NCBI GenBank assembly: GCA_021788365.1
Contig: JAJYKS010000003.1
Coordinates: 73,810-137,809 of the forward strand
From: a bacterium
GTDB lineage: Bacteria > Patescibacteriota > Microgenomatia > UBA1400 > UBA12108
Reading direction: 5' to 3'
Length of the DNA: 64,000 bases
The notes beneath the pieces were generated by a model. The model was not told the DNA's origin. It saw only the letters and a list, made by a program, of their open reading frames with translations, and ran no database searches. Shown here piece after piece: positions 21,878 through 39,995 of the stretch. Position 1 is the stretch's first letter. Each line of letters opens with the position of its first letter. Position numbers and translations under genes: made by a program.

Positions 21878-24164
21878 AGAAATTACTAAGCGGGATGGGC
21901 GGGTGGTGCCGTTTTCCGTCGACAAGCTCGCTGGGGCGATATGGAAAGCGGGGAGGGAAACTGTCGAATTTGACGAGGCAGAGTCGAAGCGACTTTCGGG
22001 AATTGTCGTTACGCTCTTAGAAAAAACTCACACACCCGGTGTGAAGGGCGCCCACACACCGGGTGTTGAGGAGATCCAGGACTTTGTCGAGCAGGTTCTT
22101 ATGGCTGCCGGTCACTATCAGACGGCAAAGGCCTACATTTTGTATCGAGCCAAGCGAAGTGAAGAACGCAGAGCCGAACGCCTTATCGGTGTCACCGATG
22201 ACCTTGGCTTCACCCCCAATCAACTTAAGGTGCTGCAGAGTCGGTATTTATTAAAAGACGAAGACGGCAAAGTAGTAGAAACTCCCAGCGAGCTTTTCCG
22301 CAGAGTGGCAAAAAATTTGGCGATAGTGGAGAAGAAGGAGAAGCGTAAGCAGGTAGAAGCAGATTTTTACGAGGTGATGAGCAAACTTGAGTTTCTCCCG
22401 GCAGGTCGAACCCTCAACAACGCCGGTACCCCTCAGTCGCAGCTCGCCAACTGCTTTGTGCTACCGGTTGAAGACAGTATGGAGGGTATATTCGACTCGG
22501 TGAAATACATGGCGCTTGTACACCAGCGGGGCGGGGGAACGGGCTTTAACTTCTCGAAACTGCGGCCAAAGGGGGATGTCGTGACTAAATCATCCGGTGG
22601 ATTTGCGACGGGGCCGGTCTCGTTTATGAAAATTTTTGACATTGCGACCCGACAGGTCATGCAGGGCGGCAAGAAGCGCGGTGCCAATATGGGTATCCTC
22701 AACGTCGACCATCCCGACATCCTCGAGTTTATTACGGCAAAATCAGAGCGAGGAGAGATAGAAAACTTTAATATCTCGGTTGGTGTGACCGATGCTTTTA
22801 TGAAAGCGGTCGATACCGACTCTGAGTGGGCCCTCAAGAATCCGCGAACCGGTGAGGTGGTGCAGACTATGCGGGCTAGAAGCCTCATGGGACAGCTCAC
22901 CGCCATGGCGTGGCGCACGGGGGACCCCGGCCTCATATTCCTCGACCCCATCAACCGCAACAACCCGCTCCTTTCTAGGTACGGACGGATCGATGCCACG
23001 AACCCGTGTGGGGAGCAACCCCTTCACCCCTTTGATGCGTGCAACCTGGGAAGTGTAAACCTAGCAAAATTTGTCGGACCCTTCACACCCGGTGTGAAGG
23101 GTACCCACACACCGGGTGTGTTGTGGAACAGACTTGCCTTTGTGGTGCGGACGGCGGTGCGGATGCTCGACGACGTTATCGACGCATGTAAATATCCTTT
23201 ACCCCAAATTGCCGAGACCGTGCGGGCAAATCGCCGGATAGGGCTCGGTGTCATGGGGTGGGCAGATATGTTGTACCAGCTCCGTGTGCCATATGACTCT
23301 GACGCGGCGGTAAAGCTTGCCGGCAAAGTAGCCAAATTTATTCAGGATACCAGCTGGGATGAGAGTGCGAGATTGGCAAAGGAAAAAGGGGTATTCCCGC
23401 GGTGGAAAGAATCTAGTTTTGCACTTAGGGGACGGACCTCTAAGTATCGTAACGTGGCAATTACCACAATTGCACCAACCGGCAGCATCTCGATGCTCGC
23501 CGATGCATCATCGGGAATAGAACCGGTGTTTGCACTCGCCTATACCAAAAATGTGGTGGAAGACGCGGGCCTTACCTACATCAACAAGTATTTTGAGCGG
23601 GAGCTGCAAGCGGCTCTTTGGGCAGATGGTGACGCCGAACACAAGGTGCGGGATAGGATAGTTCGTGAAGTCTCGGCGGCTGGGTCGGTTGCCCACGTGT
23701 CCGGGGTACCCGCAGAGGTTGCCGGCGTCTATCGAACGGCGCATGACATATCACCCGAGTGGCATGTGAAGATGCAAGCTGCTTGGCAGAAATACACGGA
23801 TAACGCGGTCTCCAAGACCATTAACTTTCCCAACAGTGCGACTATAGATGACGTGGAGCGAGCATACATGCTAGCCTGGAAATCGGGGTGCAAGGGGATC
23901 ACCATTTACCGGGACGGGAGCAAAGACGTACAGATTTTGTCGGTGGGATCAACAAGCCGGCAAGTCAGCGAATCGGCTAGCCAGCAAGCCAGCAAGCCAG
24001 CAAGCCAGCAGATAATACAGAGTAAAATCAAAACAGAAACGTTGAAAGAGCGGGCAGCAAAGGGAAAACATATGACGGTGTGTCCGGAGTGTGGCGGAAA
24101 ACTTGTTGTCGAAGAGGGGTGTGCCAAGTGTTACGGATGTGGGTTTAGTGTATGCAACGGATAG
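21855..24164 (+). CDS. nrdJ: class II ribonucleotide reductase, copy 3, with an N-terminal ATP-cone
   Basis: 769 aa; N-terminal ATP-cone (MIKEITKRDGRVVPFSVDKL); NPCGEQPLHPFDACNLGSVNL, VSKTINFP, C-terminal CPECGGKLVVEEGCAKCYGCG; alternative start at 21870. Confidence 0.85.
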   Translation: MGNLDMIKEITKRDGRVVPFSVDKLAGAIWKAGRETVEFDEAESKRLSGIVVTLLEKTHTPGVKGAHTPGVEEIQDFVEQVLMAAGHYQTAKAYILYRAKRSEERRAERLIGVTDDLGFTPNQLKVLQSRYLLKDEDGKVVETPSELFRRVAKNLAIVEKKEKRKQVEADFYEVMSKLEFLPAGRTLNNAGTPQSQLANCFVLPVEDSMEGIFDSVKYMALVHQRGGGTGFNFSKLRPKGDVVTKSSGGFATGPVSFMKIFDIATRQVMQGGKKRGANMGILNVDHPDILEFITAKSERGEIENFNISVGVTDAFMKAVDTDSEWALKNPRTGEVVQTMRARSLMGQLTAMAWRTGDPGLIFLDPINRNNPLLSRYGRIDATNPCGEQPLHPFDACNLGSVNLAKFVGPFTPGVKGTHTPGVLWNRLAFVVRTAVRMLDDVIDACKYPLPQIAETVRANRRIGLGVMGWADMLYQLRVPYDSDAAVKLAGKVAKFIQDTSWDESARLAKEKGVFPRWKESSFALRGRTSKYRNVAITTIAPTGSISMLADASSGIEPVFALAYTKNVVEDAGLTYINKYFERELQAALWADGDAEHKVRDRIVREVSAAGSVAHVSGVPAEVAGVYRTAHDISPEWHVKMQAAWQKYTDNAVSKTINFPNSATIDDVERAYMLAWKSGCKGITIYRDGSKDVQILSVGSTSRQVSESASQQASKPASQQIIQSKIKTETLKERAAKGKHMTVCPECGGKLVVEEGCAKCYGCGFSVCNG
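22028..22066. repeat. about 39-bp double-palindrome element inserted in-frame in nrdJ3 (copy 1; encodes HTPGVKGAHTPGV)
   Basis: tcacacacccggtgtgaagggcgcccacacaccgggtgt; near-identical to 23078-23125. Confidence 0.6.
23078..23125. repeat. about 45-bp double-palindrome element inserted in-frame in nrdJ3 (copy 2; encodes FTPGVKGTHTPGV)
   Basis: cccttcacacccggtgtgaaggg is a perfect 11-bp-arm palindrome, followed by tacccacacaccgggtgtgttgtgg; the reverse strand encodes a TPGV-like peptide. Confidence 0.6.
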
Positions 24165-29335: not shown

Positions 29336-29650
29336 TTATTGACAAGCGAGTAAGTTAAATAATGCGTCCGCGATAATCCATTCTTTCTGAGCTGTGTTCA
29401 TTGAAACTACGAATTCTGCAAACGGCTTTCCAGTTACGCTCTCTAGGTGTTTTTGAGCAGCAATTACTGCTTGCGGCGATGCGGCAAACGTAACTTTTCT
29501 TGGAGGTTTACCATCTTCCCCGTTCATGTGGGCATCGATATAGCTGAAGGTTTGATATCTGTCGGGTACGGATGAGGCACAATATTCTATATAGTTAGAG
29601 AAACATGAGGGAATGGGGGGAGTTTGGATGATTAAAATATCGTGGGTCAC
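29336..29650 (-). CDS. hypothetical protein
   Basis: 104-aa ORF whose start overlaps the stop of the recombinase gene (ATGA); no motif. Confidence 0.35.
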   Translation of the reverse strand: MTHDILIIQTPPIPSCFSNYIEYCASSVPDRYQTFSYIDAHMNGEDGKPPRKVTFAASPQAVIAAQKHLESVTGKPFAEFVVSMNTAQKEWIIADALFNLLACQ

Positions 29651-30525
29651 AGTTCGGCGATCTTGATTTTCTTGGGTTCGGATTTGGCTCCGTTTAAGAA
29701 TTCGAGGTATTTTTCAGTGGTTGAGAGTCGCTTGTGACCTACCATGTGGGAGAGCTCGACAATCGGGACGCCAGCCTTTAGTTGTTCGACGACAAAAGTG
29801 TGGCGGAGATCGTTGACCTTTGCCCCTTCAATCCCTGCGATTCTGAAGTAACGGTTCACGGCGGTACGAATGTTGCGAATTAGGAAGGGATTGCCGGTTT
29901 TGGTGACGAATAGCGTGGTGTTCTTGGTGCGAGGACGGTCTTTGACATACATTTCGATTGCGTCTTTTGCTGTCTTATTGAGGGGGACTTTGCGTGCGTC
30001 GTGACTCTCATAGGCACGGACTTTGAGGAAACTTTTTTCTATGGAAATGTCTTGCAGTTGGATGGCTGCGAGCTCGCCGATGCGAAGTCCAGTCTGGAGC
30101 AAAAGCTCGACAATGGCGTACATGCGGATATCACCTTTAGCTGCGTCGCGGAGGGCGCGATATTCTAGGGGAGAGAGGACGCGGGGTGGGGTAATCTCGT
30201 ATTTGGGGTGGGAGACACTGGAAGCAGGACTTGATGCGACGGCACTAACACTAATCAGGTATTTGAAAAATGACTTAATGGAATTTAGCTTGCGGGAGAT
30301 ACTTTTTAGGGTGTATTTTTCGTCTTTAAGGCTTTGTTTAAAAGATTCGAGGTGGTCGCTCGTCACTGCTGAGGCTTCTATTACCCCTTGTTTTCCCAGG
30401 AATTCGATAAGCTGATCTAGATCTTTGGCATAGGCAAGGATGGTCGCTCCGGCGCGGCCATTCTTCTGGAGATATTTGATAAACTCTGCTTTTTGTGGTT
30501 GCATACTAGGTACTCGGGGCAGCAC
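29647..30525 (-). CDS. tyrosine recombinase (XerC/XerD-like)
   Basis: 292 aa; N-terminal core-binding domain and C-terminal catalytic residues (R...HxxR in LRHTFVV, GHKRLSTTEKY with the catalytic Y). Confidence 0.8.
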   Translation of the reverse strand: MLPRVPSMQPQKAEFIKYLQKNGRAGATILAYAKDLDQLIEFLGKQGVIEASAVTSDHLESFKQSLKDEKYTLKSISRKLNSIKSFFKYLISVSAVASSPASSVSHPKYEITPPRVLSPLEYRALRDAAKGDIRMYAIVELLLQTGLRIGELAAIQLQDISIEKSFLKVRAYESHDARKVPLNKTAKDAIEMYVKDRPRTKNTTLFVTKTGNPFLIRNIRTAVNRYFRIAGIEGAKVNDLRHTFVVEQLKAGVPIVELSHMVGHKRLSTTEKYLEFLNGAKSEPKKIKIAEL

Positions 30526-30569
30526 GAATTTTTCGTAACTCGGCTAATAATACTATATTATGGGTCATA

Positions 30570-30950
30570 ATGCAATCCCCTGGTGTAGAGGAATATATGC
30601 GGAAAGTATTCTTATATCTCATTATCTTCTTTCAGATCTTGCTTATTATCTCTCTTGTGCAGGGGATACGGGCGTCTCTCAAGTCGCAGCAGCGAGTGTC
30701 AACCCTCACTGCCATGAGGCAGTCGCTCGAGGAAACTAGGCAGAAGTTGTTGCAGGAATACCAATATGTGCAGAGTCCGTATTATCTTGAGGAGATGGCA
30801 CGGGATCAACTTCATCTCTCCAAGCCAGGGGAAACGGTTGTGATCGTACCTCAAGGGGCAGTTGCGACAGCGTCAGCTGCGCCTACTAGCACAGAACACT
30901 TATACCAGGCTAATTGGCAGAAGTGGTGGGGTGTAATCACGGGAGAGTAG
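30570..30950 (+). CDS. FtsB/DivIC-like septum formation initiator (TM + coiled coil)
   Basis: 126 aa; single TM followed by a heptad-rich segment (SLKSQQRVSTLTAMRQSLEETRQKLLQEYQYVQ) and DQLHLSKPGE typical of FtsB/DivIC. Confidence 0.55.
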   Translation: MQSPGVEEYMRKVFLYLIIFFQILLIISLVQGIRASLKSQQRVSTLTAMRQSLEETRQKLLQEYQYVQSPYYLEEMARDQLHLSKPGETVVIVPQGAVATASAAPTSTEHLYQANWQKWWGVITGE

Positions 30951-31045
30951 TCGCCTGGAGGACCGTTCGCCCCTACACTGCACAAAAAGTATCTTCCAGA
31001 CGGTTGGTACTCTATTCCAGATTTGTGATGATAAAATAGGAATGT

Positions 31046-31187
31046 GGAGAGTGGGCAGGACGGTAATGCGCGAGTCTTGAAAACTCGTGTCCGTAAGGAC
31101 TAACAGGTTCGACCCCTGTACTCTCCGCCGAGATAACAGGCTACAGTCCTGAGCTTGTCGAAGGATTCGACCCCTGTACTCTCCGCC
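31046..31187. repeat. left arm of a long inverted repeat (IR-L) with 1.4 copies of a 58-bp tandem unit
   Basis: ggagagtgggcaggacggtaatgcgcgagtcttgaaaactcgtgtccgtaaggactaacaggttcgacccctgtactctccgcc gagataacaggctacagtcctgagcttgtcgaaggattcgacccctgtactctccgcc. Its reverse complement is found at 33231-33429. Confidence 0.8.
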
Positions 31188-31205
31188 ATAAAAGGAGGTA
31201 GCGAT

Positions 31206-31808
31206 ATGCAGAAGACCACACTTGAGGAGCATTCGGCCGGGGGAGTGGTTTTTCGCTATACGCGAAAAACAGGAGATAGGAGAGAGATTCTAGATTCTAG
31301 CGAAGTAGAATTTTTGTTGGGGAAACATAGCGGGTATCACAAATGGGTGTTACCCAAGGGGCTGGTGGAGCGGGGTGAGACGCACGAGGAGGCTGCAGCG
31401 CGGGAGGTAGCGGAGGAGGTGGGGGTGCGGGCTAGAATCGTGGATGTAGCGCCTCTCAAGACCATTACGTATTGGTACTACGCCGATTTTGGGGATCCTT
31501 CGACAAGCTCAGGACTAGTAGGAAAATCGGCAACGGGTGAGGCGAGCGCGCGGCGGGTGAAGACCTATCAGGAGTCGCCTGACTTCGCCAAGGCTACGTC
31601 GGGTAAAAGTGGTGGCAAGGTGCGGGCGCACAAAACGGTGACGTTTTACCTCATGGAAGCGGAAAGTGATTTGGGAAAAGAGGGATGGGAGATGGAGGAG
31701 CGAAAGTGGGTCTCGTATGATGAGGGGATGCAGCTTCTGGCGTTTGATACGGAGCGAGAAGTGTTTGAGGTAGCGGGGGAAGCCCTTCGACTGCGTTCAG
31801 GGTTATAA
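31206..31808 (+). CDS. NUDIX hydrolase with a low-complexity internal insertion
   Basis: Start trimmed to MQKTTLEEHSAGG (RBS aaaggagg upstream). The 5' part of the track ORF lies in the repeat and is spurious. Nudix box GLVERGETHEEAAAREVAEEVGV. The insert region DPSTSSGLVGKSATGEAS contains a 22-nt copy of the flanking repeat. Confidence 0.7.
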   Translation: MQKTTLEEHSAGGVVFRYTRKTGDRREILDSSEVEFLLGKHSGYHKWVLPKGLVERGETHEEAAAREVAEEVGVRARIVDVAPLKTITYWYYADFGDPSTSSGLVGKSATGEASARRVKTYQESPDFAKATSGKSGGKVRAHKTVTFYLMEAESDLGKEGWEMEERKWVSYDEGMQLLAFDTEREVFEVAGEALRLRSGL

Positions 31809-31867
31809 ATTCTGTGCCTCTGGTCAGAATTGTCAGCCATAGGCTGATCGGTCTTTGACCGAAACTG

Positions 31868-31939
31868 TGCTCCTGCCGAGACTTGAACTCGGATTTCATC
31901 CTCCGGAGGGACGCGTCCTATCCATTAGACTACAGAAGC
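31868..31939 (-). tRNA. tRNA-Arg (anticodon CCG)
   Basis: Manual cloverleaf: acceptor GCTTCTG/CAGGAGC (one G-U), anticodon stem CGTCC/GGATG, loop CTCCGGA, T-arm CCGAG-TTCAAGT-CTCGG. Confidence 0.75.
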
Positions 31940-31952
31940 AACCGTTGTGATG

Positions 31953-32024
31953 TGCGCCTGACTGGAATCGAACCAGTATTGGCAGTTCCGCAAACTGCTG
32001 TCCTATCCGTTGAACGACAAGCGC
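31953..32024 (-). tRNA. tRNA-Arg (anticodon GCG as read; unusual, the usual bacterial isoacceptor is ACG)
   Basis: Manual cloverleaf: acceptor GCGCTTG/CAGGCGC, anticodon stem GCAGT/ACTGC, loop TTGCGGA, T-arm ACTGG-TTCGATT-CCAGT. Confidence 0.65.
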
Positions 32025-32056
32025 ATTCGTGCGCCTATTATACCTCAAGATTTGAG

Positions 32057-32596
32057 TTAACTGTTTTCGAGAGGAACTTTGTCAGAAAGCCACTTGCTGG
32101 CACGATCTACCCAGCTGTCTGCGGGCTTCTCGAGCGGAATTTTGTCGCCGATGGCTTTTATAATTTCTTCACGCTTTTTGGGGTCTACGATCATGAGGAC
32201 AACCCCCGGGAGTGGCTTCTTTGTTTTGCAGATCACCATTTCGGTATCCCATTGTTTTTTGAGCCAAAAATTGGTGAACTCGTCCCATTCGTATAGCTTG
32301 TCGTCGGTGCGAATACCCTTGGTGGTCACCTGATGTTTGGTGTCCTCAGGTTTATTTGCGGCCAGTACGTAGGAGAGAAAGGCGAAGGCGATGATGACCC
32401 CTATTAAAAGGAATTCTTTGAGGAGCAGAAGAATCACGCCAAGCAGGAATGCAATGCTCGCGATCGTTGTGTAGAACTCGCGGGTGCGGGCTTTGTATGG
32501 ACGGGAAGGAGCTGTCCACTCGAGTATAACTTTTTCGACCTTTACACTCTCGGGTATTTTTTCACCGTCGGTGTAGATGGGAGTAGGTGAGACCAT
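32057..32596 (-). CDS. hypothetical membrane protein (two TM helices)
   Basis: 179 aa; hydrophobic stretches IASIAFLLGVILLLL and LIGVIIAFAFLSYVL; no family recognised. Confidence 0.45.
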   Translation of the reverse strand: MVSPTPIYTDGEKIPESVKVEKVILEWTAPSRPYKARTREFYTTIASIAFLLGVILLLLKEFLLIGVIIAFAFLSYVLAANKPEDTKHQVTTKGIRTDDKLYEWDEFTNFWLKKQWDTEMVICKTKKPLPGVVLMIVDPKKREEIIKAIGDKIPLEKPADSWVDRASKWLSDKVPLENS

Positions 32597-32613
32597 AGTA
32601 GCAGTATAGCAGA

Positions 32614-33225
32614 CTAGGAATGTATATGTTCCTTGACCGTCGAGATTAGCATGTGGAGTGACGGATCGTTGTATCCTTCAGGGATGATTATGTCTGCGAC
32701 TCGTTTACTGGGCTCTACAAATTCGAGGTGCATCGGACGGACGGTGTCCTGATATTGTTTGAGGACGGATTCGATGGTGCGGCCGCGTTCGGCGGTATCG
32801 CGCCGTAGACGTCGAATAAAGCGAACGTCGGCTTCGGTGTCGACAAAGATTTTCATATCGAAAAGTGGCAATAGCTCGGGGTAGGCGAGGGTGAGAATAC
32901 CTTCCACCACTATGACCGGAGTTGGCTCTAAGCGGACGGTTTTCTCTTCCCTTGTATGGGTGGCAAAATTATAGATGGGGCGGTCAATGGCCACTCCTTT
33001 ACGAAGTACGGTGAGATGTTTTATAAGGAGTTCTACTTCGAGCGCCCGGGGATGGTCAAAGTTGTTTTTTGTGCGCTCCTCGATGGATAGGTTGGAGAGG
33101 TCGTGGTAGTAGTTGTCGAAGGCAATGAGCGTCACCTCGTGAGCGCCAAACTTGCCGACCAGATTCTCGGCTATGGTGGTTTTTCCGGAGCCGGTTCCAC
33201 CGGCTATACCTATTGTGTACGTCAT
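32614..33225 (-). CDS. udk: uridine kinase
   Basis: MTYTIGIAGGTGSGKTTIAENL P-loop; about 203 aa; start codon abuts IR-R. Confidence 0.85.
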   Translation of the reverse strand: MTYTIGIAGGTGSGKTTIAENLVGKFGAHEVTLIAFDNYYHDLSNLSIEERTKNNFDHPRALEVELLIKHLTVLRKGVAIDRPIYNFATHTREEKTVRLEPTPVIVVEGILTLAYPELLPLFDMKIFVDTEADVRFIRRLRRDTAERGRTIESVLKQYQDTVRPMHLEFVEPSKRVADIIIPEGYNDPSLHMLISTVKEHIHS

Positions 33226-33230
33226 ATGTA

Positions 33231-33429
33231 GCGGAGAGTACAGGGGTCGAATCCTTCGACAAGCTCAGGACTGTAGCCTGTTATCTCGGCGGAGAGTACA
33301 GGGGTTGAATCCTTCGACAAGCTCAGGACTGTAGCCTGTTATCTCGGCGGAGAGTACAGGGGTCGAACCTGTTAGTCCTTACGGACACGAGTTTTCGAAA
33401 CTCGCGCATTACCGTCCTGCCCACTCTCC
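33231..33429. repeat. right arm of the long inverted repeat (IR-R) with 2.4 copies of the 58-bp tandem unit
   Basis: Units at 33233-33290 and 33291-33348 plus a partial third, then ...cgcgcattaccgtcctgcccactctcc; reverse complement of IR-L with one extra unit and a few substitutions. Confidence 0.8.
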
Positions 33430-33491
33430 TACGCTAAAGCTACGGAGAGCAAGCTCTCCTGACTTTATTGGATAATTTTAGCAGACGAAGG

Positions 33492-33962
33492 CTAATACCC
33501 GGTGGGAGGCTTGGTTTTCTTGCCAAGCTGGGGGAAGGGGTGGGATTGAAGGAAGGCATGTATCACGTCTACTGCTTTGAGCAATTCATTTAGGTTACCG
33601 TCGCGCGAAACCACGAGATCCTGGCAGTACTTTTCGGTTTTCGTCCAGTCGTTCTTAAACGTTTGATTTATATCTTTCCATTCAATATCGGCGAGGAGAG
33701 CCGCCGCCGTCTCGGAAAAAGGGACGACGCCGATTTTCATGAGGTAGGCGATAGCAGGATAGCCGAGGTAGTCCTGCCAGTAGCTCCCATTGTCGTTTGT
33801 CATGATAGCCCCCGTTTTGGGGTCGTATGACACTGTGTAGTATTTATTGCGGGAGGAGCTGTAAACTTTTGCCGTGTTTTCTAAGACCTCGATACGTCCA
33901 TCGGCAAGCGCCCCCAACGCTTCGTAGATTTTAATTCTCGGTGGAAGTTTCCAGGAAGCCAT
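33492..33962 (-). CDS. hypothetical protein
   Basis: Start trimmed to MASWKLPPRIK so it does not overlap tRNA-Ser; no motif. Confidence 0.4.
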   Translation of the reverse strand: MASWKLPPRIKIYEALGALADGRIEVLENTAKVYSSSRNKYYTVSYDPKTGAIMTNDNGSYWQDYLGYPAIAYLMKIGVVPFSETAAALLADIEWKDINQTFKNDWTKTEKYCQDLVVSRDGNLNELLKAVDVIHAFLQSHPFPQLGKKTKPPTGY

Positions 33963-33985
33963 ATACCTGTATAATACATATATCT

Positions 33986-34070
33986 GGAGGAGTCGCCTAG
34001 CGGCTATGGCACAGCATTGGAAATGCTGCGTGCGCAAGCACTCGCGGGTTCGAGTCCCGCCTCCTCCGCC
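33986..34070 (+). tRNA. tRNA-Ser (anticodon GGA), class II with a long variable arm
   Basis: Manual cloverleaf: acceptor GGAGGAG/CTCCTCC, discriminator G, anticodon loop TTGGAAA, 16-nt variable arm, T-arm GCGGG-TTCGAGT-CCCGC. Confidence 0.8.
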
Positions 34071-34120
34071 TTTGTTCTTACTTCGGCGGACAGGTCCGCA
34101 GGAAGGGTATAATTAGCGGT

Positions 34121-34744
34121 ATGCAACTTTTATTCGACGCGACCGATTTTGAGGCGCCATACACAAATCTTGTGTTCCCTGGCAAGGCAGAAGATGAAAA
34201 GCTCCTGTATGTGACCCGCGAAGCACCGCTTGTGCTGTCTGTACGCCTTACAACGTTTTTCTTGATTGTTGCTCTGGGAATGGTGGCAGGTTCTATTATG
34301 CTTTCATATACGGGGAAGCTCATCGGATTTGATACGACTATGATCGTGCTCCTCCTCCTGCTCCTTGGTGCCGTTGTTATTTTTGGCGGATTGTGGTGGA
34401 TATGGCAGGTGTACCGTAAGACCGTGTTTATTATTACCACCCGTCGCCTTACCAAATTTATCCATACGACTCCATGGACACGGTATCAGATGTCACTCGG
34501 CCTTGATAAAGTGGTCGACTCTGCTGCCTATAGCAAGGGCTATGTGCAGGCAATGTTCGGCCTCGGTACGTTTGTCGCGCGTTCCTCGGCCGGAAATATC
34601 AAGAACTTTAAGATTGAGAACATCCACTATGCCGAAGATCTCCACAACTGGATGAACAAACTCATGTTTACCTTTAACAAAGAAATAGAGAAGTTGGACC
34701 AAATGAAGCCATTTGTGGCAAAGCCAATGGGGAAACGGGATTAG
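34121..34744 (+). CDS. hypothetical membrane protein (possibly bacterial PH-like/DUF304-type)
   Basis: 207 aa; two TM helices followed by a soluble domain. Confidence 0.45.
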   Translation: MQLLFDATDFEAPYTNLVFPGKAEDEKLLYVTREAPLVLSVRLTTFFLIVALGMVAGSIMLSYTGKLIGFDTTMIVLLLLLLGAVVIFGGLWWIWQVYRKTVFIITTRRLTKFIHTTPWTRYQMSLGLDKVVDSAAYSKGYVQAMFGLGTFVARSSAGNIKNFKIENIHYAEDLHNWMNKLMFTFNKEIEKLDQMKPFVAKPMGKRD

Positions 34745-38344: not shown

Positions 38345-38420
38345 TCCCCTGTAGCTCAGTCGGTAGAGCGCCTCGCTGTTAACGAGGATGTCGCAGGTTC
38401 GAGCCCTGCCGGGGGAGCCA
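38345..38420 (+). tRNA. tRNA-Asn (anticodon GTT)
   Basis: Manual cloverleaf: acceptor TCCCCTG/CGGGGGA, D-arm GCTC/GAGC, anticodon loop CTGTTAA, T-arm GCAGG-TTCGAGC-CCTGC, encoded CCA. Confidence 0.85.
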
Positions 38421-39995
38421 AATTGGATTGGCTGGTCGCAAAGATGGGTTTTTGATCAATAGTTCCGTGTATTTTTGAGGTTCGAGCCGCTTCTTGTACT
38501 TTTCTTCCCATTTTTCGGGATTTTGTATAGCCAGAAAATGGTTTAACAGGTGTATCCGTATATTCTTATTGAAGTAGGTGAGGTTCGAACTGAGATCGAG
38601 TAGCAGCTTATGCTTTTCTTCTCTGGTTCCCGTCTTGAATTTGTGCTCTGCAGCGTAGGCTAGGTCAAGTGCATTTTCTATTCGCCTGCGATTATCGTCG
38701 AGATCCTGACTTGTGTTGGTTAGCTGCTGCTCCAGGGTATGTTTTTCACTCTCTAGCTTGCGTTTCTTCTCGTTGTATACAGCTTCGTCGATGTTATTTT
38801 CAAGACGCATATCCAAAAGGGTATTTAATTTGTTCTCTACGATTTGGAGAGCGCTTTGGCGTGAAGCCATGACGTTTTCTTGGAACAGGTGCTCGTCTTT
38901 ATGAGCGTATCTAAGCCATTTTTTGGCCCATTCGACAAACTCTTGGGGTGGGCGAATGGAAAGTAATACTTCTTTGATTTGGTCATTGAGCTCAGATTCC
39001 GTTATCGGTTTTTGATTACAGCGAGGGAACCGTCTTTTCTTCGAGCAATGATAGTAAGTGTATATGGCGGTACGATTGGTTTTTTTGTAATGCTTGGGTT
39101 TACGGCTAGCGGTAATAGAGCACCCACATTCTTCACAACGCATGAGTCCGGTTAAGTTAAACAAATGTGATCTCCTAATCGGCTTGCCGAGTTTGCCGAG
39201 CATGCGTTGAATGATGTCGAATTCGACTCTGGTAATCATTGCTTCATGTTTACCTTGAATCCAATGTCCTGATTGCGCTGGCCACTCGTATTCTCCGTAG
39301 TAGAAGGGGTTATTGAGTATATTGTAAAAAGTAGAGCCGGAGAGTTTACCTCCTTGTTGTCCGGTGAGTTTCCATTCGTTGCGTGCCATTAGCCATACGT
39401 CGCAAGCTTGTGAACCTGCGAGAATTTCGTGGAAGCATCGTTTTACGAGCGCGAACTTGAGCGGGTCATTTTTTATGGTTTTATATCCTTTGGCAAGTTC
39501 GGGTGTGTTGATGTAGCCTAATGGAGCTACGGTAGGGTACCAGCCCATTTCGGCTTTTTGTTTCATGCCTCTTACAACATCAACTCCTTTTTTATCGTTC
39601 TCATACTTGGCTTGGATCATACAGAATGCCAGCCACATTTTGTCATTGGGGTTGTTGAGGAAAGTTTGGGAGGGGGTGATAATGCGGATCAGCAGTTTTC
39701 TATCCATGAGGTCGATAATTCGAGCGGAGTCTACCGGGTTACGGGAGAGACGATCAGCGTGCCATACCATTATGGTGTCGACCTCCCCGTTTTCTATTAG
39801 CTCCATGAGCCTGTTAAACTGCTCTCGTCGCCCGGAGATTTTGGCGGATTTAGATTCGTAGAGCTCAATTCTTTCTTTGGGGAGATCAGGTGTTCTTTCG
39901 GCTAGTTTGTTCATTTCTTCCATTTGTGCCGGAATGGAAAGCATTTGCCGATCTTCTGTTTCACTGGATTTACGTGCGTAAATTGCATATTTCAT
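38379..39995 (-). CDS. large serine recombinase (resolvase/invertase catalytic domain + recombinase domain + zinc ribbon)
   Basis: 538 aa; N-terminal YARKSSETEDRQMLSIPAQ with the catalytic Ser; recombinase domain; CEECGC...CSKK zinc ribbon; C-terminal coiled coil; the last about 14 codons read into the tRNA-Asn 3' half. Confidence 0.8.
   Translation of the reverse strand: MKYAIYARKSSETEDRQMLSIPAQMEEMNKLAERTPDLPKERIELYESKSAKISGRREQFNRLMELIENGEVDTIMVWHADRLSRNPVDSARIIDLMDRKLLIRIITPSQTFLNNPNDKMWLAFCMIQAKYENDKKGVDVVRGMKQKAEMGWYPTVAPLGYINTPELAKGYKTIKNDPLKFALVKRCFHEILAGSQACDVWLMARNEWKLTGQQGGKLSGSTFYNILNNPFYYGEYEWPAQSGHWIQGKHEAMITRVEFDIIQRMLGKLGKPIRRSHLFNLTGLMRCEECGCSITASRKPKHYKKTNRTAIYTYYHCSKKRRFPRCNQKPITESELNDQIKEVLLSIRPPQEFVEWAKKWLRYAHKDEHLFQENVMASRQSALQIVENKLNTLLDMRLENNIDEAVYNEKKRKLESEKHTLEQQLTNTSQDLDDNRRRIENALDLAYAAEHKFKTGTREEKHKLLLDLSSNLTYFNKNIRIHLLNHFLAIQNPEKWEEKYKKRLEPQKYTELLIKNPSLRPANPIWLPRQGSNLRHPR

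Follow-up and report, generated by a model that had tools for sequence, protein, structure and literature searches.

Organization of the locus

Within the window, the whole stretch of 64,000 nt that was analysed, a segment at positions 31046-33429 is bounded by two tRNA-Ser genes that face inward, each followed by broken copies of its own tail. A NUDIX hydrolase gene, two tRNA-Arg genes, an ORF encoding 179 aa (ORF179) and the uridine kinase gene udk lie between them, and a tyrosine recombinase gene is located at 29647-30525, 520 bp to the left of the segment. The features are listed below; the two -10-like boxes are inferred from the sequence.

31032..31037, + strand: candidate -10-like box TAAAAT in unique left-flank sequence, 8 nt before tRNA-Ser(UGA)
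31046..31129, + strand: tRNA-Ser(UGA), left inverted-repeat arm (ARAGORN; Rfam tRNA, RF00005, 45.6 bits)
31130..31187, + strand: left 58 nt unit, comprising linker GAGA, TAACAGG (copy of the 5' T-stem region), a 25 nt insertion and a 22 nt copy of the tRNA 3' end
31145..31166, + strand: hairpin module AGTCCTGAGCTTGTCGAAGGAT, copy 1, in the left unit
31192..31198, + strand: Shine-Dalgarno-like AAGGAGG for NUDIX, identified by eye
31206..31808, + strand: NUDIX hydrolase, 200 aa (Pfam PF00293; NCBIfam NUDIX matches weak)
31495..31516, - strand: hairpin module copy 2, inverted, in frame in NUDIX, encoding DPSTSSG
31867..31939, - strand: tRNA-Arg(CCG) (ARAGORN, Rfam)
31952..32024, - strand: tRNA-Arg(GCG) (ARAGORN, Rfam)
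32057..32596, - strand: conserved hydrophobic protein, 179 aa, no NCBIfam match
32614..33225, - strand: uridine kinase, udk (NCBIfam NF004018, 269.6 bits against a cut-off of 180)
33231..33287, - strand: right distal unit, comprising a 21 nt 3'-end copy (33231-33251) and a 36 nt spacer (33252-33287)
33251..33272, - strand: hairpin module copy 3
33288..33345, - strand: right proximal unit, comprising a 22 nt 3'-end copy with a G-to-A change in the T-loop (33288-33309) and a 36 nt spacer (33310-33345)
33309..33330, - strand: hairpin module copy 4
33346..33429, - strand: tRNA-Ser(CGA), right inverted-repeat arm (ARAGORN; Rfam tRNA, RF00005, 43.5 bits)
33475..33480, - strand: candidate -10-like box TAAAAT in unique right-flank sequence, 46 nt before tRNA-Ser(CGA)

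A preliminary description of this DNA had reported near-perfect inverted repeats adjoining the starts of two inward-facing genes, NUDIX on the + strand and udk on the - strand, with two tRNA-Arg genes inside the segment, and all of this is borne out. The arms (31046-31187 and 33288-33429) are 142 nt each, 98% complementary with three mismatches, and lie 2100 nt apart; NUDIX starts at 31206, 18 nt past the left arm, and udk at 33225, 5 nt past the right array. The possibility that the repeat was an assembly artefact was ruled out, as three MAGs and no fewer than six independent metagenome assemblies contain the arms and units.

The complete tRNA-Ser gene in each arm had been overlooked. Both genes are 84 nt long, carry the long variable arm in the ARAGORN calls, and score above the Rfam tRNA gathering score of 29 bits. 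They are near-identical, with differences confined to the anticodon loop. The tRNA-Ser pair itself is ordinary.

The 58 nt units are pseudo copies of the tRNA 3' end

One 58 nt unit trails the tRNA on the left and two trail it on the right, each composed, as first described, of the 22-mer TTCGACCCCTGTACTCTCCGCC and a 36 nt spacer. The spacer is identical in all three copies, where the number of matches expected in shuffled sequence was zero. The repeated 22-mer corresponds to the T-loop, 3' T-stem and 3' acceptor strand of the tRNA-Ser itself, and the unit as a whole is a pseudo copy of the last 29 nt of tRNA-Ser (the end of the variable region, the T-arm and the 3' acceptor strand), interrupted between the 5' T-stem and the T-loop by a 25 nt insertion that consists mostly of a 22 nt hairpin module. 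The 7-mer TAACAGG is common to the units, and is also kept in the diverged unit of a sister strain. No noteworthy ORF is present inside the units. The first unit could have originated by tandem duplication followed by insertion of the module; alternatively, the module could have inserted first, with subsequent repair from the paralog. The GTCGAA-GGA-TTCGAC hairpin that had been noted within the unit exists, but is a by-product of the junction between the widespread hairpin module and the T-loop.

A CRISPR array was considered and rejected, in agreement with the earlier dismissal of the CRISPR-like layout: the repeats number no more than two to three and are separated by identical 36-mers. No match to Cas families was found among six neighbouring proteins, and no cas-like Pfam domain was found in the genes within 10 kb on each side.

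Homogenization of the tRNA-Ser pair and variation among relatives

The same synteny and UGA/CGA pair were identified at 17 related loci, none of which carries tandem 3'-end copies or the hairpin module in its tRNA trailers. The related Microgenomates keep the tRNA-Ser pair, lack the units and mostly lack udk. The two tRNA-Ser genes of the window differ at 2 of 82 positions, compared with 10-14 of 82 in seven related genomes, and the two remaining differences are isoacceptor-specific loop bases found in all relatives. The CGA gene of the window has a UGA-type acceptor stem and variable arm, and the two arms are more alike than each is to its own ortholog. Given relatives that lack the units and whose tRNA genes differ at 10-14 of 82 positions, the 142 nt inverted repeat is best explained by recent gene conversion.

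We propose that the tRNA-Ser pair, with NUDIX, the two tRNA-Arg genes and the 179 aa ORF between them, is ancestral in the lineage. The CGA gene would then have been overwritten by UGA-type sequence except in the anticodon loop, in a tract that ran into the 3' trailer, and this conversion would have produced the 142 nt, 98% identical inverted repeat of the species cluster to which the window belongs. With the inverted repeat traced to two isoacceptor genes homogenized by gene conversion, neither a new regulatory cassette nor an exotic mobile element need be invoked. In two contigs of related species (L024 and L029), the trailers of the UGA and CGA genes are swapped.

Unit number varies on the udk side: two units are present in the window and one in L002, L003, L004 and L185. 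A sister strain retains tRNA-Ser(CGA) and a two-unit array, but a convergent K+ transporter gene (K_trans) replaces udk, and the distal unit has decayed (linker changed, 1 nt inserted in the module, terminal CC lost). Because the tRNA and every unit share their terminal 22 nt, slippage or unequal exchange is the probable cause of unit gain and loss in the array.

Integration classically leaves direct repeats of a tRNA 3' end, and the repeated 3' ends might be att scars left by integrase insertions at tRNA-Ser, with udk or K_trans as the cargo of a small degraded islet. The region downstream of tRNA-Ser(CGA) differs between strains (udk or K_trans) and between species, where gaps of 0.4-3 kb hold different content, and a tyrosine recombinase gene lies 520 bp away. 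However, every 3'-end copy is located between the tRNA and the supposed cargo, and none was found past udk at up to four mismatches or past K_trans in the sister strain at up to three. The identical 36-mer spacers point to tandem duplication and argue against separate insertion events. Additionally, the unit also trails tRNA-Ser(UGA), whose neighbour NUDIX is ancestral, and the interior encodes only NUDIX, udk, ORF179 and two tRNA-Arg genes, without an integrase. The nearby recombinase looks like a housekeeping Xer by its sequence: its best NCBIfam matches are XerA, XerC and XerD, each below the curated cut-off, the tyrosine-type DNA invertase model scores 27 bits, and the gene is approximately 80% conserved in the same place in relatives without units or a homogenized repeat. 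We consider an origin of the 3'-end copies by integration quite unlikely.

A probable inversion of the 2.1 kb interior

The suggestion that the inverted repeats mediate DNA inversion found partial support. In metagenome contig L004, the left flank, tRNA-Ser(UGA) and one unit are joined to udk, whilst in L003 and L185 the right flank, tRNA-Ser(CGA) and a unit are joined to the udk of L004, the interiors being 100% identical. Orientation A is represented by the window, L003, L007, L177, L185 and L176, and orientation B by L004. On its udk side, contig L002 breaks off precisely at the final base that distinguishes a UGA from a CGA loop. The inverted orientation is thus represented by one short MEGAHIT contig and one contig-end coincidence, and the reciprocal junction (right flank, CGA gene, unit, NUDIX) was not found among the contigs. 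The exact shared stretch of 108 nt is shorter than the assembler k of 141, which speaks for the junction in L004. This contig may nevertheless be a low-coverage chimera. L004 supports natural inversion without proving it.

The tRNA-Ser pair probably lets the 2 kb between the genes flip. In the mechanism that we propose, the arms recombine by homology: non-crossover events would yield the homogenization seen in the window, and crossover events would flip the 2.1 kb interior. Such a flip would swap only which tRNA leads which operon, and for this reason is probably close to neutral.

In several related species, tRNA-Ser(UGA) alone is flipped relative to both of its neighbours, an arrangement that simple recombination between two arms does not account for.

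A short gene cassette bracketed by inverted repeats, next to a tyrosine recombinase gene and with signs of both orientations, also has the appearance of a programmed site-specific invertible switch, in which the recombinase would alter expression of NUDIX and udk; in Thermococcales, an integrase can invert the DNA between tRNA gene pairs (PMC5495485). We regard such a switch as highly improbable here. The arms are whole tRNA genes with their trailers (142 nt) and not short dedicated recombinase sites, and the recombinase falls below all curated cut-offs and is kept in relatives that lack the homogenized repeat. Furthermore, a tRNA-led unit, with its putative promoter, would precede each operon in either orientation, so that no on/off logic is visible.

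Probable co-transcription and RNA processing

Each arm probably has its own promoter in the unique flank, where the candidate -10-like boxes lie. TAnAAT boxes occur close upstream of the orthologous tRNA in relatives, and the sister strain has GATAAAATATCG at a similar distance upstream of tRNA-Ser(CGA). A consensus promoter scan and terminator prediction gave nothing above the shuffled expectation. Each arm is followed, on its own strand, by an operon: NUDIX on one side, and udk, ORF179 and the two tRNA-Arg genes on the other. With a tRNA gene leading each operon in this way, co-transcription is likely. In five related contigs (L023, L028, L043, L046 and L180), the NUDIX ATG lies 2-12 nt past the tRNA 3' end, which leaves no room for a separate promoter and suggests that co-transcription is the rule in the lineage. 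Both operons are probably made as tRNA-mRNA precursors and freed by tRNA-processing nucleases.

The idea that the repeat is a duplicated promoter/5'UTR cassette co-regulating two salvage genes survives only in part: the arms do lie upstream on the same strand, with co-transcription likely, but they are tRNA genes and not promoters. A cassette dedicated to regulating udk and NUDIX is hard to square with the sister strain, which has the array but where a K+ transporter gene occupies the place of udk.

It is possible that the pseudo-tRNA units are functional RNA processing signals, their fold mimicking the acceptor and T arms for RNase P, RNase Z or the CCA-adding enzyme. If the precursor were cut at the final pseudo 3' end, the downstream mRNA would be freed, with udk left nearly leaderless. 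Within the unit, GAGA/UCUC and ACAGG/CCUGU are predicted to pair around the module hairpin. Folding of the repeat as RNA, which had been suggested as a check, gave a divided result: z values of -3.8 and -3.0 were obtained for precursors of tRNA plus one unit (142 and 145 nt), and of -4.1 for the right precursor with both units (208 nt), but the unit alone barely beats shuffled sequences (z -1.5). The udk ATG is positioned 6 nt past the discriminator-equivalent G of the last pseudo-tRNA 3' end (GCtacatATG), with no Shine-Dalgarno sequence in its upstream sequence, and resembles the junctions of real tRNA 3' ends with the NUDIX ATG in L023, L028, L043 and L180. The left distal copy reads GCCA, equivalent to an encoded CCA end. 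However, NUDIX of the window has its own 18 nt leader with AAGGAGG, and the array of the K_trans strain, with its decayed distal unit, precedes a convergent gene, indicating that units persist and drift without a gene to release. A processing role for the units, which would be compatible with our main explanation, seems to us unlikely on balance.

Taken together, we assign a probability of roughly 70% to the reading that the locus is a homogenized, inward-facing tRNA-Ser pair with recombining arms, a unit array that carries the hairpin module, and tRNA-led operons. It offers a compact natural case, in a reduced CPR genome, of tRNA genes as recombination substrates (gene conversion, change in unit number and a probable 2 kb flip). 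With start codons abutting real or pseudo tRNA 3' ends, the lineage is also suited to testing for leaderless mRNAs produced by tRNA-processing enzymes in CPR bacteria.

A widespread hairpin module

The hairpin is the unexplained part of the locus. Exact matches to the module numbered >120 in unrelated metagenome contigs of 29-69% GC, and were located inside coding genes, 23S rRNA and group I introns; 53 of 113 contexts were stop-free frames of at least 150 codons. The module is 19-22 nt long, has an invariant 11 nt apex, GAGCYTGTCGA, which in RNA form (GAGCYUGUCGA) contains tandem G.A pairs, and is stop-free in five of six reading frames. In a set of 26 family members retrieved via the invariant 11-mer, the stem covaries with a score of 0.478, compared with at most 0.176 in slid registers, and none of 500 shuffles reached 0.478. 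At the locus studied here, the DPSTSSG insertion in NUDIX is confined to the species cluster of the window, and orthologs lack it. Its presence as an in-frame insertion in one species cluster, and absence from the corresponding site in orthologs, is a pattern expected of small palindromic mobile elements. No GTAG/CGTC tag, the hallmark of REP elements, was enriched in the flanks of the module, and no transposase, such as the RAYT associated with REPs, lies close by in the window. We found no published description of the module.

These observations lead us to speculate that the module is a hitherto undescribed element of extremely small size, spreading among widely different bacteria and inserting in frame into genes as well as into 23S rRNA, the helices of group I introns and a pseudo T-arm. 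At this locus it would have seeded the tail array as well as the copy that lies inverted in NUDIX. The identical 22 nt in hosts of 29-69% GC would be explained by a conserved partner acting in trans, either an apex-binding protein or a templating enzyme. We put this forward as a tentative possibility. If mobile or templated, the module would be among the smallest known elements, and a recurrent source of short in-frame insertions and of spurious ORFs in metagenomes. The recurrence of its exact sequence in genes, rRNA and introns of unrelated organisms is worth keeping.

The module copies could also act as an antisense pair, in which trailer RNA pairs with NUDIX mRNA, acting in cis as part of the NUDIX leader or in trans as part of the udk leader, and couples the two operons. 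Copies 31145-31166 and 31495-31516 share perfect complementarity over 22 nt, or 26 nt with one bulge, as the pairing extends to CTAC on one side and, across a 4 nt TCGA gap, to CCCC on the other. This complementarity is kept in strains in which NUDIX is otherwise down to 77% identity, but the NUDIX sequence around the module is equally conserved in those strains. In-frame copies of the module also occur in many unrelated genes that lack a second copy in the vicinity, which makes an insertion footprint the simpler reading, and we give antisense coupling very little credence.

Comparison with known systems

The closest parallel for the unit array is the tRNA-Tyr locus tyrT/tyrV of Escherichia coli (rttR sRNA, tpr), which has same-strand tandem units directly 3' of the tRNA, each containing the 3'-terminal ~19-22 nt. 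In E. coli K-12, we found three 178 bp units after tyrV, each with the last 19 nt of the tRNA, starting at locus positions 405, 583 and 761; the proximal unit overlaps the last 19 nt of tyrV. Units of the tyrT type are the source of rttR, an RNA that is processed and stable, or of the small peptide Tpr. Those of the present locus measure 58 nt compared with 178, the tRNA copy within them spans 29 nt and is split by a hairpin module, and the arrays are found on two inverted paralogous tRNA genes with protein-coding genes immediately after.

Recombination between inverted paralogs has precedents, such as the rrn-mediated inversions of enterobacteria. On Saccharomyces chromosome XIV, a flip/flop (FF) region is bounded by homogenized inverted paralogs (PMC9731477). 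As in that region, inverted paralogous genes here appear to be kept identical by gene conversion, and the interior may occur in either orientation in natural populations, to judge in our case from metagenome contigs; the repeat is only 142 nt (108 nt exact) compared with 4 kb, and the interior only 2.1 kb. In Thermococcales, inversion breakpoints lie in oppositely oriented tRNA gene pairs, where identical segments as short as 104 bp suffice for recombination, and catalysis by a plasmid integrase has been demonstrated (PMC5495485). The two cases share oppositely oriented tRNA genes at the inversion endpoints, which are putative here, and a tyrosine recombinase as a suspect, but no mobile-element integrase is present here, and the neighbouring recombinase is Xer-like.

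For the hairpin module, the comparison is with short palindromic repeats. Rickettsia palindromic elements (RPEs) are ~100-150 nt long and occur in frame in protein-coding genes, in RNA genes and in intergenic regions, and REP-type palindromes are marked by a GTAG/CGTC tag and an associated RAYT transposase. The module resembles both in being a small palindrome with a covarying stem that is found between genes, in frame in genes and in RNA genes. It differs from RPEs, which are mentioned in PMC1779305, in its length of only 19-22 nt, its invariant 11 nt apex and its identical sequence in hosts of 29-69% GC.

Finally, the arrangement of tRNA and protein-coding genes recalls tRNA punctuation, in which a same-strand tRNA lies upstream and start codons abut its 3' end; release of the mRNA would follow the same logic here. 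Punctuation of polycistronic transcripts by tRNAs operates in mitochondria and in the bacterial tRNA-tufB operon. Unlike these, the udk junction uses a pseudo-tRNA 3' end instead of a real one.

A pair of inverted tRNA-Ser genes forms the repeat

The inverted repeat that brackets the NUDIX/udk segment spans 142 nt (31046-31187 against 33288-33429), is 98% complementary and has its arms 2100 nt apart. The preliminary description had reported inverted repeats carrying 58-bp tandem units, and these proved to be real: three exact copies of a 36-nt spacer, GAGATAACAGGCTACAGTCCTGAGCTTGTCGAAGGA, are present (expectation in shuffled sequence, 0). They alternate with the 22-mer TTCGACCCCTGTACTCTCCGCC, so that the left side carries a single additional 58-nt unit and the right side two. 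This 22-mer is made up of the T-loop, 3' T-stem, 3' acceptor strand and discriminator of tRNA-Ser, followed by CC. Each arm contains a complete tRNA-Ser gene, and the two genes differ solely in the anticodon loop (CUUGAAA in the UGA gene, UUCGAAA in the CGA gene). ARAGORN also confirmed the two tRNA-Arg genes said to lie inside the segment. An Rfam search of 30900-33600 (E<=1) returned the four tRNAs only, and assigned neither the unit nor the hairpin module within it to a family.

Genes of the arms and adjoining the arrays
31046-31129, plus strand: tRNA-Ser, anticodon UGA (ARAGORN; Rfam tRNA 45.6 bits, gathering score 29)
31206-31808, plus strand: NUDIX gene, starting 18 nt past the left array
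32614-33225, minus strand: udk, starting 5 nt past the right array (uridine kinase model 269.6 bits, cut-off 180)
33346-33429, minus strand: tRNA-Ser, anticodon CGA (ARAGORN; Rfam tRNA 43.5 bits, gathering score 29)

The unit runs in the order linker GAGA, TAACAGG, a 25-nt insertion (CTAC followed by AGTCCTGAGCTTGTCGAAGGA) and TTCGACC-CCTGT-ACTCTCC-G-CC. TAACAGG, the 7 nt directly before the T-loop in the tRNA, recurs in the spacer, so that the tail copy exceeds 22 nt; we estimate the chance of a 7-mer match within a 15-nt stretch at ~5e-4. The same heptamer is kept in the diverged unit of a sister strain, where the linker differs. Judged by its sequence, the unit duplicates the tRNA's final 29 nt as a pseudo copy, broken between the 5' T-stem and the T-loop. 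In the predicted fold, GAGA/UCUC and ACAGG/CCUGU pair around the hairpin.

A short way upstream of tRNA-Ser(CGA), at 33444-33459, lies a further hairpin, GGAGAGCAAGCTCTCC (GGAGAGCTTGCTCTCC on the tRNA-sense strand), with arms identical to the tRNA acceptor stem strands and a loop, CTTG, identical to the module's centre. This hairpin might be left over from a tRNA since deleted, or act as a weak terminator of UCP014422.

Relatives and gene conversion

The window belongs to MAG GCA_027372535.1, contig DAHXIW010000001.1. A scan of species-representative genomes with the tRNA 3' end returned 43 loci, of which those named belong to Microgenomates-group MAGs (Collierbacteria, Shapirobacteria and Woesebacteria). 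Many of the loci have in common the order XerC/D-like recombinase, DivIC, tRNA-Ser(UGA), NUDIX, tRNA-Arg(CCG), tRNA-Arg(GCG), ORF179 (a 179-aa hydrophobic protein), then a variable stretch, tRNA-Ser(CGA), UCP014422, tRNA-Ser(GGA), p207 and DnaG. The tRNA pair bracketing the segment is therefore ancestral. The tRNA-Ser trailers of the relatives all lack both tandem 3'-end copies and the hairpin module, and the sequence of the tRNA-NUDIX spacer is not conserved among them. In the nearest relatives beyond the species cluster (NUDIX 65% identical), the tRNA is followed directly by NUDIX, GCAAATATG.

The UGA and CGA genes of seven relatives show 10-14 differences over 82 positions, spread across the acceptor stem, anticodon stem and variable arm. 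Those of the source genome show 2, at precisely the loop bases by which the isoacceptors are told apart in every relative; its CGA gene bears a UGA-type acceptor stem and variable arm, and identity runs on through the first unit. This combination is the signature of gene conversion between inverted paralogs, which would homogenise the tRNA-Ser pair while selection keeps the anticodon loops. Further evidence of recombination among these tRNA genes comes from the loci L024 and L029, in which, on comparison between species, the trailers of the UGA and CGA genes are exchanged. We conclude that the inverted repeat is a tRNA-Ser pair homogenised by gene conversion, with pseudo-3'-end repeats of the tyrT type.

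Several features of the relatives' loci were also recorded. A two-hairpin element (ACaTCgAG..cGAGAAGTGtATCCAGAt...ATCTGGGATgCC) is conserved 3' of tRNA-Ser genes in the trailers of L019, L024, L029 and L037, and is inverted and upstream of tRNA-Ser(UGA) in L043; the L024/L029 swap covers this trailer plus one other. Across related species, tRNA-Ser(UGA) alone is found in either orientation between DivIC and NUDIX (L024, L026, L027, L036, L040 and L047 against L019, L023, L028, L029, L037, L043, L046 and L050), and where it faces the opposite way to NUDIX the two genes have a quasi-palindromic double -10 region (tattatacctgagatataat) between them. Such solo flips cannot arise via recombination between the two tRNA-Ser arms.

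Strain variation and inversion of the interior

Junctions in independent assemblies show that unit number varies from 1 to 2. Three MAGs and several ENA and Logan assemblies carry the arms and units, and an assembly artefact or collapsed duplication was rejected on this ground.

Arrangement of tRNA-Ser genes, units and adjoining genes
Window and L001: left flank, UGA, 1 unit, NUDIX; right flank, CGA, 2 units, udk
L007 and L177: left flank, UGA, 1 unit, NUDIX
L003 and L185: right flank, CGA, 1 unit, udk
L176 and L184 (sister strain): UGA, 1 unit, NUDIX ... ORF179, K_trans (convergent), 2 units, CGA
L004: left flank, UGA, 1 unit, udk

Assembly GCA_021842825.1 holds two versions of the DivIC-tRNA-Ser-NUDIX region, on JAKBYJ010000159.1 (L007) and JAKBYJ010000219.1 (L177), with NUDIX proteins of 192 aa and 180 aa, and this bin therefore mixes two strains. 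In the sister strain (L176 and L184), a 646-aa Kup-type potassium transporter, K_trans, stands in the opposite orientation between ORF179 and tRNA-Ser(CGA) instead of udk, and the distal unit has decayed. The slot 3' of tRNA-Ser(CGA) varies by strain and species, measuring 0.4-3 kb with differing content in relatives.

In contig L004 the interior is inverted, and its 1273-1279-nt sequence is 100% identical to L003 and to L002. The exact stretch common to both paths is 108 nt, below the assembler k of 141. On its udk side, contig L002 ends at exactly the last base separating the UGA loop from the CGA loop, as expected of a graph branch if both tRNA types join udk in that sample. A search for the reciprocal inversion junction, via exact and variant right-flank proteins, recovered only junctions in the orientation of the window. 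The earlier suggestion that such repeats can mediate inversion is upheld in part: the window orientation was seen in L003, L007, L176, L177 and L185 and the flipped interior in L004 only, with the reciprocal junction not found. These assemblies support, short of proof, a natural inversion polymorphism of the interior, and the tRNA-Ser pair probably mediates a near-neutral flip of these 2.1 kb.

Other readings of the segment were considered. It lacks the defining features of a CRISPR-like array, the 36-nt spacers all being identical. Tests likewise did not find the short dedicated recombination sites of a site-specific invertible switch or, going by the predicted promoters, a promoter link that changes with orientation, nor did they find the defining features of an integrated element with att duplication.

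Probable expression from the arms

Each arm lies upstream of an operon and on the same strand as that operon. The unique flanks each carry a TAAAAT box, 8 nt ahead of tRNA-Ser(UGA) on one side and 46 nt ahead of tRNA-Ser(CGA) on the other, and similar boxes are present in relatives and in the sister strain; counts in a consensus promoter and terminator scan of 30500-34200 were not above those in shuffles. In the relatives L023, L028, L043, L046 and L180, the NUDIX ATG stands 2-12 nt past the tRNA 3' end, leaving no space for a promoter or ribosome-binding site, so that co-transcription with the tRNA is the simplest explanation. For this lineage, we infer that the mRNA would be co-transcribed with the tRNA and then freed by tRNA 3' processing. 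The udk ATG in the window stands at an equivalent junction, in this case after the final pseudo 3' end (GCtacatATG), and NUDIX has acquired an AAGGAGG leader. It is conceivable that the pseudo T-arm/acceptor mimic of the unit may itself be recognised by RNase P or RNase Z; the decay of the distal unit in the K_trans strain argues against general selection on the units.

The hairpin module

The unusual element here is the module found in the units and in NUDIX, which merits separate study. This 22-mer, AGTCCTGAGCTTGTCGAAGGAT, lies within the spacer, with an inverted copy in NUDIX, and all four true copies of the 64-kb window sit within the studied segment.

Module copies in the window
31145-31166
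31495-31516 (inverted, in NUDIX)
33251-33272
33309-33330

The NUDIX copy reads DPSTSSG in translation and adds 6-7 residues to a variable loop, an insertion confined to the source species cluster. Both it and the unit copy are flanked by CTAC and, past a 4-nt TCGA gap, by CCCC; one was therefore probably derived from the other. A fifth exact GAGCTTGTCGA, at 21919-21929 on the minus strand in the N-terminal coding region of ribonucleotide reductase (FSVDKLAG), has unpaired flanks and is probably a coincidence.

Scanning of JGI metagenomes yielded >120 exact module matches, and those listed fall into 113 unrelated contexts whose hosts span 29-69% GC. Among these listed matches, the module lies in stop-free frames of at least 150 codons in 53 of the 113 contexts, using all five open frames (xPSTSSGL 24 times, SPELVEG 11 times, and also VLSLSKD, SFDKLRT and ILRQAQD); these are presumably peptides that occur in many 'hypothetical proteins'. 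The flanks add 5 bp or more to the helix in 37 of 111 contexts, compared with 9 of 111 controls, again among the matches listed. IMG/VR gave one match, so the module is not mainly viral, and a tRNA lies within 300 nt at only 1 of 121 listed loci elsewhere, so its association with tRNA is not general. The 284 kb of related Microgenomates loci contain no copy of the module.

Rfam placed other copies, always in sense orientation, in 23S rRNA (L171), at a helix tip, and in group I introns (L151, L073 and L103), where they cap intron helices. In L151, a CCUAAG...UAUGG receptor-like motif lies directly below the module, which caps P5, and P6 is capped by a second hairpin with identical arms. The wider family has an invariant 11-mer, GAGCYTGTCGA, between covarying stems (for example TCCT/AGGA, CTGC/GCAG, CCCT/AGGG and TGGT/ACCA). 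Across 26 family members, none picked via the 22-mer, the covariation score was 0.478, compared with <=0.176 for slid registers, and was reached by 0 of 500 shuffles. Counts of G.U versus A.C, taken for the folding strand, were 16 versus 18 overall and 10 versus 4 in the inner stem, and gave no clear preference for either strand. Hammerhead, K-turn and box C/D motifs, compared by eye only, gave no clean fit. Literature searches by sequence, encoded peptides and description found no account of the module in the paper library covered, the last returning general REP/MITE papers only.

Two metagenome contigs, L061 and L141, read (GAGTCCT)n-GAGCTTGT-(CGAAGGAT)n, with the module arms tandemly amplified either side of the loop, and many other contexts have one nested layer (CCTG-[module]-CGAAGG). 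This suggests that the hairpins grow by symmetrical duplication of their arms.

Neighbouring features

A 538-aa large serine recombinase (Resolvase/Recombinase/Zn_ribbon_recom domains; 38379-39995, minus strand) overlaps the 3' part of tRNA-Asn(GUU) (38345-38420) by ~40 nt, with several small ORFs after it. Together these may make up a small element integrated at tRNA-Asn; the locus showed no flanking direct repeat. A LOOT RNA (Rfam RF03000; 41944-42061, plus strand; 80.1 bits, gathering score 46.4) adjoins the small-ORF cluster.

Comparison with known systems

In its landing places the module resembles the Rickettsia palindromic elements, but it is much smaller and has a much wider distribution. 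The Escherichia coli tyrT/tyrV repeats belong to the same class as the tail repeats; on inspection of that sequence there are three units of 178 bp, and the final 19 nt of tyrV fall within the proximal unit. In Thermococcales, inversion breakpoints lie at tRNA pairs, and 104 bp of identity is enough for an integrase (PMC5495485); the tRNA-Ser pair described here is a match for such breakpoints. Likewise, the homogenised inverted tRNA-Ser paralogs follow the logic of the yeast FF region, in which inverted paralogs are homogenised and the interior flips (PMC9731477).
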